DNA from: Deltaproteobacteria bacterium
Lineage (GTDB): Bacteria > Myxococcota_A > UBA9160 > UBA6930
Direction: 5' to 3'
Assembly: GCA_019312665.1 (NCBI GenBank)
Contig: JAFDCZ010000005.1
Location: forward strand, 1 to 62,163
DNA: 62,163 nt
Positions 47,606-53,547 of the stretch are shown piece by piece. Each line of letters starts with the position of its first letter. Within the stretch, counting starts at the first letter, position 1. A program made the position numbers and the translations under genes. The notes beneath the pieces are model-generated. The model saw nothing but the letters and a program-made list of their open reading frames with translations, was not told the DNA's origin and did no database searches.

Positions 47606-48955
47606 ATGGGGGAGAAGCCGTTTCCGGAGGCCATGCCCACGGTCCTGTTGGCAAGCAGCGACCCGGAGGCACCGAAATGGCTCGATGAAGCGAGCCGCGG
47701 TGAACTGCAGATCCAACAGATCGCCCCATGCGACCTGGGCAATGGCAGTTTCTGGGTCGACGCGCCCGTGGCCGTCGCCCACCTGCGGGATGCAGATGGC
47801 CCCGCAGCACTCGACGCCCTGTTGGCCCTCCGCGAATTACCTCTGGCCGAACGCATCGTGCTCGTATCCGATCTGAGCGACTCGACTGAGCTCGCCCGCG
47901 GGCTCGACCAGCTGCAACCGGTCGCTTGGCTCCCGGATCCGCCTCCCACACCTGCGCTGAAGCGCGCGCTGCGACTCGCGATGCCGACCCAGCCCGGTGC
48001 CGGTGCTCGGCGTGGACAGCGTCCGATCCAGGCGCTGCTCGGCGTGAGCGCGGCGCTGCGTGAAGTCACGGACGAGATCCAGCGCATCGCGCCGACCCAG
48101 ACCTCGGTGTTGATCCTTGGCGAGACGGGCACCGGCAAGGAGCTCGCCGCCCGCGCCGTGCACGAGCAGAGCCTTCGGGCCAGCGGGCCGTTCGTCGCCA
48201 TCAACTGTGCAGCTCTTCCGGAGACGCTTCTCGAGAGTGAGCTCTTCGGCTCCAAGAAGGGATCCTTCACCGGCTCCGATCGTGATCGCACCGGCCTCTT
48301 CGAGCAGGCCGACGGCGGAACCCTCTTCCTCGACGAGATCGGCGACACCACGCCGGCACTCCAGACGAAGCTTCTCCGGGTCCTGGAAGAGCGCGAGGTA
48401 CGCGCCGTCGGTAGCTCCGAATCCCGCGCCGTGGACGTGCGGATCGTTTCCGCAACGCATCGCGATCTTCCGGCAGCCATCGAGAGCGGCGAGTTCCGCC
48501 AGGATCTCTATTACCGCCTCAACACGCTGACCCTGGTCTTGCCGCCCCTGCGTCGCCGACGCGTCGACATCCCTTTCCTCGCCCAGCACTTTGCGGAGGC
48601 CTTCGGCGAAGAGAACGCACGCCAGATCACCCTCAGTGAGGAATTTCTCGACGCGCTCGCCAGCTACGAGTTTCCGGGCAACGTGCGCGAGCTTCGCAAT
48701 GCCGTCGAACGGGCGATCGCGCTCACCGGACCGGGTGAAGATGTTCTCGCCTCGGCGTTGCAACCACGCCAGGGTCCCACCGAACCCCCTGGAGGCGCCG
48801 GTCGTGGCAGCCTACGTGAGCAGGTGGAGCGCCTCGAGGTGGAGTTGATCCGCCGGGCCCTCAGCACCAACGAAGGCAACAAGACCCGCGCCGCGGAAGA
48901 CCTGGGCCTCTCCCGCGTTGGCCTGGGCAAGAAGATCAAGCGCTACGGGCTGTAG
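47606..48955 (+). CDS. Sigma-54-dependent transcriptional activator (NtrC-family bEBP) with a degenerate receiver-like N-terminus
   Basis: ATG at 47606. AAA+ core [33 protein letters not shown] (a GAFTGA variant), [10 protein letters not shown] and [10 protein letters not shown]-like motifs. C-terminal Fis-type [29 protein letters not shown]. Confidence 0.92.
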
Positions 48956-48966
48956 GCGACACCCAG

Positions 48967-48987
48967 GTTGTCGGTGCTGCCGACAAC
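48967..48987. promoter_or_regulatory. Inverted repeat GTTGTCGG-N5-CCGACAAC immediately after the bEBP stop (terminator stem or upstream activator site)
   Basis: 8-bp perfect arms read at 48967-48974 and 48980-48987. A second inverted repeat, GGAGGCA-N5-TGCCTCC, lies at 49078-49096. Confidence 0.35.
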
Positions 48988-49141
48988 TTCGTTCGCGCGC
49001 CAGAGAATCCTTCGATCCCGGGCAGTTCCACATCGACCTGCATTCGCAAGACGAACCCGGCGACGAATCGCGGCAGTGGAGGCAGAGGTTGCCTCCGAGG
49101 ACAGTCGTGGAACTTCGGGCGTGTTGGGCGGAAGCTGCCGA

Positions 49142-50682: not shown

Positions 50683-52323
50683 ATGGCAGAGATCCACGGC
50701 GGACAGATCGCGGCGCGACAGCTCCAGTTGGCCGGCATCGACACCCTTTTCGGTGTGGTCGCCGGCCCCATGATCGAGGTATTCGCTGGCGCCCAGGAGG
50801 CGGGTCTGCGGGTGGTGGGCTGCCGCCACGAGATGAACGCGGGCTTCGCGGCTTCGGCATGGGGATACCAGACTCGAAAGCCCGGCGTACTCGTAGTGGG
50901 CTCAGGCCCGGGCATGACGAACGCGGTGACGCCCATGCATGTCGCCACCGAGAGCGCGATGCCACTCGTCGTCCTCGGCGGCTCGGCCTTCACGAACACC
51001 CGAGGTGTCGGAGGCTTTCAGGAAGCCCATCAGACGGCCTTCGCGGCGCCCGCGTGCAAATGGGTCGGCCAGGTGGATTCCACGGAGCGAATCGGTGAGT
51101 GGCTGCACCTTGCCCTCGGCAAGGCACTCCAGGGTCGACCCGGTGCGGTGTACCTGGATTTTCCGGGTGAGCTGGTCGCGCGACGAATCCCGGAAGAGAA
51201 CGCCGTCCTTCGCAAGCGCTCGCCGGAGATCTTCCGTCCGCATCCGGATCCGAATGCGATCGACCGCTTGGCAGGGCTGATCGCGGACGCCGAGCGGCCG
51301 CTGTTGCTGGTCGGCAAGGGAGCCGCGTGGGCCGAGGCGGGGAGCGCGCTGACCCGTTTGGCGGATCGCGGCCTGCCTTACGTCTGCTCGCCAATGGGTC
51401 GCGGTGTCGTTTCGGATGATCATCCAAACTTCGCGAACGCAGCGCGCTCTGCGGCTCTGAAGGGCGCAGACCTGGTCGTCCTGTTCGGCGGCCGCTTCAA
51501 TTGGATCTTCGGCATGGGCCGCCGCTTCGCCCCAGAGGCCACGCTCGTCCAGATCGATGTGGAAGCGGAAGAAATGTTCTCCGGCGCGGATCTGGCGCTC
51601 GGACTCGTGGCGGATGCCGCGGTCACCGCCGAGGCGCTCGATCTCGCCCTCGAGGGCCGCACGCTGCGCTCCGAAGGCGGTGGCTGGCTCAGCGGATTGC
51701 GCGAGCAGGCTCTGCGCAACGAAGCCGCCGCCCGCCAGGCGCTCGGCGACGACGCCGTTCCGATCAACCCCTACCGGCTGGTGGCGGAGGTGCGCGAGGC
51801 TCTGCCGCGAGACGCCATCGTGACGACCGAGGGCGAGACGATCATGGGCATTTGCCGCGCCATGCTCCCGAGTTATGGCGAGCGTTCGCGGATGAACGCG
51901 GGCACGACGGGTTGCATGGGAACAGGCGCGCCCTACGCCCTCGGCGCCAAGCTGGCCCATCCGGATCGACCCTCGGTGGCGGTGCTCGGCGACTATGCCT
52001 TTGGCGCGGCTGCGATGGTCGTCGAGACCGCCGCGCGAATCGGTGCCGCCCCGGTCTATGTGGTAGCGAACAACGAAGGCATCGCTGGTCACATGATCCA
52101 GGATCACATGCTGCCGCCCGGCTCCCCGCCCATCGCCAGCCTGCTCCCGGCTCACTACGAGAAGATCGGTGAGATGGTCGATGCCCACACCGAGCGTGTG
52201 GACCGGCCCAACGAGATTCGTCCCGCCCTCGAGCGCGCGCTTTCCGCGGATCGCGTCGCGGTCGTCCACGTGCGCTGCAATCCGAAGGCCACCCGCCTCT
52301 CGGGCACGAACTATCTGCAATAG
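50683..52323 (+). CDS. ThDP-dependent enzyme of the oxalyl-CoA decarboxylase / 2-hydroxyacyl-CoA lyase family
   Basis: ATG at 50683 follows GGGAG and gives 546 aa. GIDTLFGVVAGP...CRHEMNAGFAASAWGY...GPGMTNAVT, GGFQEAHQ and the ThDP motif GDYAFGAAAMVVETAARIG...VVANNEG. Confidence 0.85.
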   Translation: MAEIHGGQIAARQLQLAGIDTLFGVVAGPMIEVFAGAQEAGLRVVGCRHEMNAGFAASAWGYQTRKPGVLVVGSGPGMTNAVTPMHVATESAMPLVVLGGSAFTNTRGVGGFQEAHQTAFAAPACKWVGQVDSTERIGEWLHLALGKALQGRPGAVYLDFPGELVARRIPEENAVLRKRSPEIFRPHPDPNAIDRLAGLIADAERPLLLVGKGAAWAEAGSALTRLADRGLPYVCSPMGRGVVSDDHPNFANAARSAALKGADLVVLFGGRFNWIFGMGRRFAPEATLVQIDVEAEEMFSGADLALGLVADAAVTAEALDLALEGRTLRSEGGGWLSGLREQALRNEAAARQALGDDAVPINPYRLVAEVREALPRDAIVTTEGETIMGICRAMLPSYGERSRMNAGTTGCMGTGAPYALGAKLAHPDRPSVAVLGDYAFGAAAMVVETAARIGAAPVYVVANNEGIAGHMIQDHMLPPGSPPIASLLPAHYEKIGEMVDAHTERVDRPNEIRPALERALSADRVAVVHVRCNPKATRLSGTNYLQ

Positions 52324-52332
52324 GAGCCCGTC

Positions 52333-53547
52333 ATGCCCATGCCCCTCGAAGGAATCCGCGTCCTGGACTGGACGATCTGGCAGCAGGGCCCTGTCTGCTC
52401 GGCCATGCTGGGAGATCTCGGCGCCGATGTGATCAAGATCGAACAAAGCGGCAGCGGTGACCCTGGCCGCTATCTGGCGGCCGTCGGCGGCTCCACGGCG
52501 GAAGGTCGCCCGAACTGGTACTTCGAGGCCAACAACCGCAACAAGAAGAGCATCACCCTCGACCTGAAGAAGCCCGAAGCCGTGCAGGTCGTGTTCGATC
52601 TGATCCGCGAGTCGGATGTCTTCGTGCAGAACTTCCGCTTTGGCGTCGCCGATCGGCTGGGCATTGGCTACGACGCGCTCAAGGAGATCAACCCGAAGCT
52701 CATCTACGCAAGCGCAACCGGCTACGGGCCCGAGGGGCCGGACCGGGCGGATCCGTCCTTCGACCATCTGGGCCTCGCGCGTTCGGGCATCATGAACGCG
52801 GCCGGCGAGCCGGACATGCCGCCGCTCGGCATCGCCGGTGGTATCGCCGACCAGATGGGGGCCGTGATGATGGCCTACGGCGTGCTCGCTGCACTCATGG
52901 CTCGGGAACGACACGGCATCGGCCAGGCCGTGGATGCCTCGCATCTCGGCAGCATGATGTGGCTCCAGGGGCTTTCGCTCGGGATGCTATGCATGGCTGG
53001 CGTTCCCTTTCCTCGCAGCTTCCGAAAGCAGGCCTTCAATCCGCTCTGGAACCACTATGCATGCGGAGACGGCGAGTGGCTCGCCCTCGCCATGCTCCAG
53101 CCCGACCGCTATTGGGCTGATTTTGCCAAGGCCATCGACCGGCCCGAGCTGGCAACCGACGAACGCTTCGCGGACATCTCCGCCCGCTCCCAGCACGCCA
53201 CCGAATGCGTTGCGATCATCGACGAGGCTTTTGCCTCGGCACCCCGGGATGAATGGATCCGCCGGCTGCGTGAGGCTCCCGGCGATTTCATCTTCACCGT
53301 GTTGAATTCCGTCGCTGACCTTCCCAACGATCCGCAGGTGAAGGCCAACGACTACATCGTCGAGGTCGATCATCCCCAGCATGGCCCCACCCAGATGCTC
53401 GGCATTCCCGTGCGGCTGCGCGAGACGCCCGGCAGCATCCGCAGTGTCGCGCCGGAGCTCGGCCAGCACACGGAAGAGGTGCTGATGGACGTGGCCGGCT
53501 ATGACTGGGATCGCATCAGTGCCCTGCGCGAGAAGGGGGTCCTCTAG
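52333..53547 (+). CDS. Family III CoA-transferase (CaiB/BaiF/Frc family)
   Basis: 404 aa. PLEGIRVLDWTIWQQGPVCSAMLGDLGADVIKIE is the family N-terminal signature. Confidence 0.9.
   Translation: MPMPLEGIRVLDWTIWQQGPVCSAMLGDLGADVIKIEQSGSGDPGRYLAAVGGSTAEGRPNWYFEANNRNKKSITLDLKKPEAVQVVFDLIRESDVFVQNFRFGVADRLGIGYDALKEINPKLIYASATGYGPEGPDRADPSFDHLGLARSGIMNAAGEPDMPPLGIAGGIADQMGAVMMAYGVLAALMARERHGIGQAVDASHLGSMMWLQGLSLGMLCMAGVPFPRSFRKQAFNPLWNHYACGDGEWLALAMLQPDRYWADFAKAIDRPELATDERFADISARSQHATECVAIIDEAFASAPRDEWIRRLREAPGDFIFTVLNSVADLPNDPQVKANDYIVEVDHPQHGPTQMLGIPVRLRETPGSIRSVAPELGQHTEEVLMDVAGYDWDRISALREKGVL

Follow-up and report, generated by a model that had tools for sequence, protein, structure and literature searches.

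A conserved lyase-CoA-transferase couple behind a tandem DUF2889 gene and a predicted sigma-54 promoter in Myxococcota

In the oxalate-degrading systems of Oxalobacter formigenes (Oxc/Frc) and E. coli (YfdU/YfdW) a thiamine diphosphate (ThDP) enzyme and a family III (CaiB/Frc-type) CoA-transferase are encoded side by side. The logic of Oxc/Frc is established: the transferase reuses the formyl-CoA made by the ThDP enzyme. The same two families lie together in the DNA analyzed here, a contig of 62,163 nucleotides (JAFDCZ010000005.1, assembly GCA_019312665.1, a Deltaproteobacteria bacterium of the Myxococcota), referred to below as the window. A first-pass annotation, made from the sequence alone, had placed between positions 47606 and 53547 a row composed of a bacterial enhancer-binding protein (bEBP), a sigma-54 promoter, a tandem DUF2889 gene, a ThDP enzyme and a CoA-transferase, and all five are present there. 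The Pfam search that it proposed returned PF11136, TPP_enzyme_N/M/C and CoA_transf_3. We propose a catabolic row that depends on sigma-54, where a lyase and the transferase would run a formyl-CoA cycle behind a non-obligatory first gene, DUF2889; we put the probability of this reading at about 55%.

The other described enzymes close to this locus are the bacterial 2-hydroxyacyl-CoA lyases (HACL/S). Burgener et al. report that the active-site floors of oxalyl-CoA decarboxylase (OXC) and HACL differ only by the change of Tyr-Glu in OXC to Phe-Gln in HACL (PMC7154664), and the catalytic residues of Dhc/TbHACL/S are Glu50/54 and Q113 (PMC11271303). The studied HACL/S were chosen for synthetic one-carbon (C1) elongation. 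In the literature on them we found no account of a native role, partners or operon, the actinobacterial 2-hydroxyisobutyryl-CoA lyase apart. In that native pathway of Actinomycetospora a ThDP lyase frees formyl-CoA from a 2-hydroxyacyl-CoA (PMC7176365). The Actinomycetospora lyase, on a distant branch (198 bits to 7pt1), has an ATP-dependent CoA ligase as its partner, not a CoA-transferase.

The window enzyme shares with the bacterial HACL/S the three-domain ThDP architecture and the Glu50/Gln113 numbering but, at the level of genes only, it stands in a native row under predicted sigma-54 control with a dedicated transferase. Compared with Oxc/Frc, the window differs by a Phe-Gln pair, by scores below the equivalog cut-offs, by a Frc match that is not contiguous and by its sigma-54/bEBP control.

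The lyase-transferase couple

The ThDP enzyme (50683-52323, + strand; 546 aa) is matched over its three domains by TPP_enzyme_N, M and C (95.1, 99.2 and 79.1 bits). It carries GGFQE at residues 110-114. In the alignment of orthologues F112-Q113-E114 and Glu50 are invariant. Its best solved relatives, 8vzj (E 2.8e-114, 386 bits) and 8vzd (E 2.3e-112, 380 bits), are both bacterial HACL/S. The full-length alignments with HACL/S (E 1e-114 to 1e-96) keep the residue numbering, and Glu50 and Gln113 coincide with the catalytic residues of Dhc/TbHACL/S. The OXC structures reach only 272 (2q27), 266 (7ayg) and 238 bits (2c31), and the E. coli and O. formigenes OXC rank behind both HACL/S (E 1.7e-79 and 3.1e-69). 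Against NCBIfam the enzyme scores 319.6 bits where TIGR03254 requires 739.4, and 341.9 where NF006721 requires 557. From its signature residues and closest relatives the enzyme appears to be of the HACL/S type and not an oxalyl-CoA decarboxylase. The first-pass annotation had hesitated between an Oxc/Frc and a HACL-like couple; the couple is confirmed, and the Phe-Gln pair (PMC7154664) and the closest structures place it on the HACL side. The enzyme will be referred to as the lyase.

The CoA-transferase (52333-53547, + strand; 404 aa) matches PF02515/CoA_transf_3 at 378.9 bits. Only 9 nt separate its start from the lyase stop codon, with which its ribosome-binding site overlaps. The Frc equivalog TIGR03253 matches it in two stretches, at 236.7 bits for a cut-off of 504.2; as judged from its sequence the transferase is not a canonical Frc.

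Of the 401 genomes sampled in the phylum, 32, all of one class, have a lyase orthologue, with at least 63% identity over the full length; two further matches, on contig fragments, are partial. An orthologous CoA-transferase (61-84% identity) is the immediate neighbour of the lyase in 24 of the 29 orthologous loci, and no third gene is kept beside the couple in more than 8 of 25 loci. This is the signature of a self-sufficient two-gene module. Of the conserved linkage expected at the outset, the part between lyase and transferase stands, and that with DUF2889, kept within 8 kb in 6 of the 20 sampled genomes having both genes, is not general.

The own genome is unusually rich in CoA-thioester genes: it holds about 38 family III CoA-transferase genes, many arranged as tandem pairs, and 11 ThDP-enzyme matches including that of the window. 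Two of the 10 further ThDP-enzyme matches are HACL-like, with 36-38% identity to the lyase.

Promoter, activator and leader

The putative promoter, TGGCACACGCCTTGCT (49142-49157, + strand; -24 TGGCAC, -12 TTGCT), lies in the 380-nt intergenic region between the bEBP and DUF2889 genes, and is an exact match to TGGCAC-N5-TTGCW by pattern scan. The exact consensus occurs at 14 sites in the 5.3-Mb genome, for 8 with the reversed control. The promoter is found at the same position in the relatives G068, L002 and L047, i.e. in the loci that have both the bEBP gene and sufficient upstream sequence. The -24 GG and -12 GC are present, the position is kept and rpoN is in the genome, within the window itself (about 15115-15588, - strand); on these grounds we consider the predicted promoter genuine and conserved, in agreement with the first-pass claim of a consensus promoter with its own bEBP. 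The window holds two more exact consensus sites, at 10782-10797 (- strand) and 18861-18876 (+ strand).

The promoter was not found 5' of the 62 other tandem-DUF2889 genes having a called frame. The bEBP gene and the exact promoter stand together ahead of the DUF2889 gene in four loci, the window, G068, L002 and L047, and this co-occurrence is confined to the small clade of the window; the contig of L001 is too short upstream of DUF2889 to judge. L003 and L009 have the same synteny as the window without the bEBP gene, and the regulator was therefore inserted within this small clade.

The bEBP gene (47606-48955, + strand; 449 aa) has a start backed by five orthologues beginning with MGEKPF. Its product is composed of an N-terminal domain (residues 1-130), an AAA+ sigma-54 interaction domain and a Fis-type helix-turn-helix. 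The Pfam scores are those of a bEBP (Sigma54_activat 234.9, AAA_lid_14 72.7 and HTH_8 43.7 bits), and in its GAFTGA loop, here GSFTGS, Phe and Thr are retained. In the L047 relative (6287-7640) the gene seems frameshifted: the deposited protein has 372 aa and an aberrant tail, yet the helix-turn-helix can still be read further 3' in a different frame. Either there is a sequencing error here or the regulator is decaying.

In the NtrC family the N-terminal domain controls the activity of the protein. That of the window bEBP has no Pfam match, with no Response_reg even at E 5, and is common to only 6 protein clusters. Its AlphaFold2 (AF2) model is of medium confidence (pLDDT 64.5) and has a (beta-alpha)5 topology; nearly all the top Foldseek matches are receiver (REC) domains (TM 0.6-0.68). 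His59 ends beta3 (strand 55-60) at the position of the acceptor Asp, and does not vary among 6 orthologues. The acidic pocket, too, has degenerated: Ser17/Ser18 follow beta1, and WLPDPP replaces Lys-Pro after beta5. The model thus suggests a receiver fold without the phospho-acceptor Asp, the acidic pair or the Lys, and agrees with the earlier description of a receiver-like domain lacking its acceptor. Because His59 replaces the Asp, phosphorylation at the usual site would be impossible; presumably a ligand or a partner protein acts as the switch of the bEBP instead. It resembles the NtrC-family bEBPs with atypical receiver domains by its REC-like N-terminal domain, AAA+ domain and HTH_8, and differs from them by the degenerate acidic pocket and by an N-terminal domain limited to the 6 clusters.

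Two upstream elements could serve this regulator. The first is an inverted repeat, GTTGTCGG-N5-CCGACAAC (48967-48987, no strand assigned), just 3' of the bEBP stop and about 155 nt 5' of the -24 element. The L002 copy has a compensating change (GTTGGCG...CGCCAAC), G068 has two tandem copies, and the repeat is not clear in L047. It is a candidate enhancer (upstream activating sequence, UAS) or a candidate terminator of the bEBP gene. The second is the block GCGACGAATCGCGGCA (49060-49075, no strand assigned), about 70-80 nt 5' of the -24 element, whose core GACGAA..CGCGGC is invariant in all four bEBP-bearing loci; it is a second candidate bEBP-binding site.

Downstream of the promoter lies a conserved 5' leader (49158-49247, + strand) made of two C-rich tracts, a GC hairpin at 49206-49237 and then CACCCCUU. 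The hairpin has 13 bp with one compensatory pair, lies about 50 nt into the predicted transcript and gives a fold z-score of -3.4. The approximately 100 nt from the promoter through the hairpin are nearly invariant across the four loci, whose coding genes show synonymous divergence (dS) of 0.4-1.1; conservation of the leader far exceeds the neutral expectation. No Rfam family matches the leader or the spacer ahead of the lyase. The U-run following the stem is short and offset by 5 nt (CACCC between), and the terminator scan gives no call; the leader thus appears to be a structured regulatory one rather than an efficient terminator. In relatives the U-run decays to UUCUGG and UUUCUG. It may act as an attenuator, as a leader bound by a protein or as a short RNA.

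The spacer between the DUF2889 gene and the lyase (50437-50682, + strand) is 246 nt long, and has a GGGAG ribosome-binding site ahead of the lyase ATG. Pattern scans of this spacer for promoters and terminators gave none, and a putative second sigma-54 site within it was rejected for its wrong GG-to-GC spacing. The corresponding spacer is of about 100 nt in L047 and L003.

The tandem DUF2889 protein and its surroundings

The DUF2889 gene (49336-50436, + strand; 366 aa) has a start supported by the alignment with 28 homologues. PF11136 matches the whole protein in two stretches (66.9 bits). The two halves scanned separately reach 50.3 bits (N) and 22.1 bits (C), the latter under the 25-bit cut-off while covering model positions 2-123. 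In the alignment of 29 homologues repeat 1 has the invariant residues H21, H65, C104-R105-D106 and C137-S138-H139. The equivalents in repeat 2 are W255, R292, D293 and V294, i.e. the Cys/His motif is lost, and repeat 2 keeps its own LIQC305. The C-terminal tail has a conserved DSC346-x-x-W349-R350. The first-pass annotation had seen two fused DUF2889 domains, each with conserved Cys/His positions: the fusion stands, while CC...GCSHL is found in repeat 1 only. Compared with single-domain DUF2889 (PF11136) proteins, the likeness is in repeat 1, which scores above the cut-off and has the C...C-x-H motif of the family; the window form differs by the tandem duplication in one chain of 350-370 aa, by the loss of the motif in repeat 2 and by the DSCxxWR tail.

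The AF2 model (pLDDT 83.9, pTM 0.84) has two four-stranded repeats with helices on top, and the two repeats together are predicted to form an MHC-like platform of sheet plus helices. Foldseek of this model against the PDB gives no match at E <= 0.001. In the wide VIA-align comparison the top Z is 8.3 (HFE and other MHC-like platforms), a range that the tool deems uninformative; the C-domains of XDH/CODH flavin subunits, RnfG/NqrC and IscU appear at Z 6-7.5, likewise in the uninformative range. An ESM Atlas search with the protein returns only DUF2889 clusters. In the literature only two papers mention DUF2889 and neither gives it a function, in keeping with the first-pass remark that neither a function nor a link to the lyase had been described. 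The pattern of Cys and His residues makes a metal or redox site plausible. We take the protein to be a predicted cytoplasmic protein with a Cys/His site, encoded by the first gene of the row in the lineage of the window. The gene is intact and under purifying selection, with a ratio of nonsynonymous to synonymous rates (dN/dS) of 0.12-0.23. Its role is most likely, on weak support, accessory to CoA-thioester metabolism.

A search with the tandem form gives 298 protein clusters (E <= 0.001); the 120 top-ranked among them are of 311-387 aa. A scan of species-representative genomes found 66 tandem-DUF2889 loci, mostly in metagenome-assembled genomes (MAGs) of Myxococcota; the form is nearly restricted to one class of these and a few Steroidobacteraceae. 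The flanking frames of 65 of the 66 loci show no universal partner. A record of 808 aa that joins DUF2889 to an amidohydrolase was rejected as a true fusion and is read as a read-through: the junction carries the signal peptide of the amidohydrolase, and in relatives a stop codon separates both genes (L115, 2542-3597 and 3610-4899). The own genome has just one more DUF2889 gene, which encodes a single-domain form of 269 aa (L067, 1267-2076, - strand, contig C163), and the frame beside it has a faint match to the ribonucleotide-reductase small-subunit fold.

Of the 66 loci, L002, L047, L003, L009 and the degraded L064 have a lyase orthologue immediately 3' of DUF2889; in L030 and L007 it is 3.7-6 kb off, and the remaining loci have none within 8 kb. 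When the lyase is taken as the starting point, 4 of 20 extended loci contain a tandem DUF2889 gene at a distance of up to 8 kb. In the 401-genome sample both genes are present in 20, the lyase alone in 12 and DUF2889 alone in 19. All these genomes are inside a clade of about 78, where independence predicts about 16 genomes with both for the 20 observed. The phyletic profiles of lyase and DUF2889 are thus uncoupled. Where a genome has both, they are within 8 kb in the 6 of 20 cases given above; in one genome they are 1.5 Mb apart on the same contig. In quick IQ-TREE and FastTree trees the linked cases fall in neighbouring clades, and the signal is thus mostly inherited synteny.

The gene order also varies between clades: DUF2889-lyase-transferase in one, DUF2889-amidohydrolase / MFS / esterase / lyase-transferase in another, and lyase-transferase-thioesterase-amidohydrolase_2 / ECH / CoA-transferase-CoA-transferase-DUF2889 in a third. 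Proximity that outlasts rearrangement gives mild support to a shared pathway region, not to an obligatory partnership. The functional link between DUF2889 and the lyase suggested at the outset does not hold as a general one: the genes are adjacent or within 8 kb only in related lineages, their profiles are uncoupled and the lyase was lost twice (see below). What is left is a weak, local and lineage-bound link.

Downstream of the transferase and co-directional with it are an AlkZ-like gene (53578-54771, + strand) and a metallo-beta-lactamase (MBL)-fold gene (54854-55912, + strand), both identified by Pfam and NCBIfam. This pair is syntenic in the relatives L002, L047, L003, L009 and G068. Upstream of the bEBP gene is a beta-lactamase-fold gene (45946-47265, + strand). 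Further upstream are a cytochrome P450, a TetR regulator and a LanC-like protein (40466-43793, - strand), then an SCP2-type thiolase (43688-45211, - strand). The window has a G+C content of about 65%, and its source is a MAG of 5.3 Mb in 392 contigs, 90% complete. Of the DNA sequencing runs carrying words of the locus, the best, with the label marine sediment metagenome, contains 0.29 of those sampled. Metagenome scans found no relative with the single protein as query, and only relatives at most 51% identical with the alignment as query.

The proposed cycle and its alternatives

In the reading that we prefer, the bEBP would bind the upstream sequences and activate the promoter at 49142. The transcript would comprise the structured leader, then the tandem DUF2889, lyase and CoA-transferase genes. 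The transferase would shift CoA from formyl-CoA to a free 2-hydroxy acid, with formate as the outgoing product. The HACL/S-type lyase would cleave the resulting 2-hydroxyacyl-CoA into an aldehyde (or ketone) shorter by one carbon and formyl-CoA, and the latter would go back into the cycle. The formyl-CoA cycle is drawn by analogy with Frc/Oxc, since the same reuse of formyl-CoA by the transferase would apply here; we likewise infer the substrate and the co-transcription of the genes.

Several observations weigh against this catabolic row. Two are drawn from the databases: no RNA sequencing run is listed as carrying the locus, and the lyase is under all NCBIfam equivalog cut-offs, hence no substrate is assigned to it. 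Others concern the transcript. The leader hairpin might halt most transcripts, the 246-nt spacer ahead of the lyase could conceal a separate promoter, and in L002, a complete chromosome of the same genus, a SurE-family gene (9115-10014; 299 aa, with an N-terminal signal-like sequence) stands between the DUF2889 gene and the lyase.

The last objection is the loss of the lyase in close relatives. The closest one, G068, is of the same genus, with a transferase 96% and a DUF2889 protein 86% identical to those of the window. It has the bEBP gene, the promoter, DUF2889, the transferase and the AlkZ-like and MBL-fold genes, without the lyase (L136, 5271-5459): about 45 nt of the lyase 3' end are left ahead of the transferase. 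The whole G068 assembly (97% complete) has no lyase orthologue, the best match being 32% identical. L001 (1184-1258) is likewise without the lyase, with breakpoints different from those of G068. The lyase has been lost twice from the operon, independently. The comparison of the window with G068 gives dN/dS values of 0.054 (transferase), 0.12 (DUF2889) and 0.16 (bEBP). Since two close relatives kept the transferase under purifying selection after losing the lyase, it may serve some purpose that does not depend on the formyl-CoA made by this lyase.

The alternative that survives best starts from these deletions. The core of the sigma-54 unit would be the tandem DUF2889 protein and the CoA-transferase, with DUF2889 acting on the acid or CoA-thioester substrate, for instance through binding or modification, and the lyase as a dispensable consumer further down. 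The two independent deletions, which leave the bEBP gene, promoter, DUF2889 and transferase intact, are the strongest argument for it, together with the low dN/dS of the transferase and DUF2889 in a pair of genomes where G068 has no lyase orthologue. It also draws on a separate DUF2889 clade, in which the gene ends a tight CoA-transferase-CoA-transferase-DUF2889 row in at least 8 contigs (L114, 266-3672; L146, L151, L155, L159, L180, L193 and L040); the two transferase paralogues of this triad belong to another transferase subfamily, 26-30% identical to the window transferase. Nevertheless we hold this alternative to be unlikely. With about 38 CoA_transf_3 genes in the genome, the odds of a chance neighbour are about 2% per event and rise to about 11% for a span of 8 kb, and these rates approach what the 66 loci show. 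Most neighbours of tandem DUF2889 are unrelated (ABM, DUF938, PAP2, amidohydrolase), the lyase deletions may be recent decay, and no fusion backs a physical link, the sole 808-aa record being a read-through.

A broader proposal, which we regard as doubtful, is that DUF2889 could be a Cys/His-site partner of family III CoA-transferases, either a metal-dependent enzyme or a platform for substrates or CoA-thioesters. It would be controlled by sigma-54, the leader RNA and the pseudo-receiver bEBP, with the lyase as one of several interchangeable enzymes.

It seems improbable that the promoter mainly yields a short leader RNA ending at the hairpin (a small RNA or attenuator), the genes being transcribed by read-through or from another start. 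The 13-bp GC hairpin about 50 nt into the transcript and the conservation of the leader far beyond neutral would fit such an RNA. But the U-run is short, separated by CACCC and degenerate in relatives, the terminator scan makes no call, and in L002 the distance from the hairpin to the DUF2889 start is only about 30 nt, with no room for another promoter.

That the pair is an oxalate-degrading Oxc/Frc system is very improbable. The top NCBIfam names are indeed oxalyl-CoA decarboxylase and formyl-CoA transferase, and the gene order is that of oxc-frc. But the scores are far under the cut-offs (TIGR03254, NF006721 and TIGR03253), Frc matches the transferase in two pieces only, the lyase has Phe112-Gln113 where OXC has Tyr-Glu (PMC7154664), and HACL/S structures score 380-386 bits for 238-272 with OXC. 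Moreover a paralogue in the same genome, L071, one of the two HACL-like matches, scores far higher for OXC, with 564.9 bits just above the NF006721 cut-off of 557; it also has Phe-Gln.

Least probable of all, hardly to be retained, is that tandem DUF2889 signals to the pseudo-receiver bEBP, as a sensor or anti-activator whose gene comes first in its own regulon: a bEBP without a phospho-acceptor needs some input, and bEBP gene, promoter and DUF2889 are always contiguous in the bEBP-bearing clade, but about 60 other genomes carry the DUF2889 protein without this bEBP or promoter, and the protein is older and more widespread than a regulator whose N-terminal domain is found in 6 clusters only.

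Bacterial HACL/S enzymes serve the building of synthetic one-carbon pathways. A native lyase-transferase couple, conserved within a single myxococcotal class, suggests a natural alpha-oxidation cycle that would need no ATP and would recycle formyl-CoA. The tandem DUF2889 protein, for its part, is a stand-alone and widely kept protein whose link to the lyase is local, and its repeated placement beside CoA-transferases is the sole remaining lead to its role.

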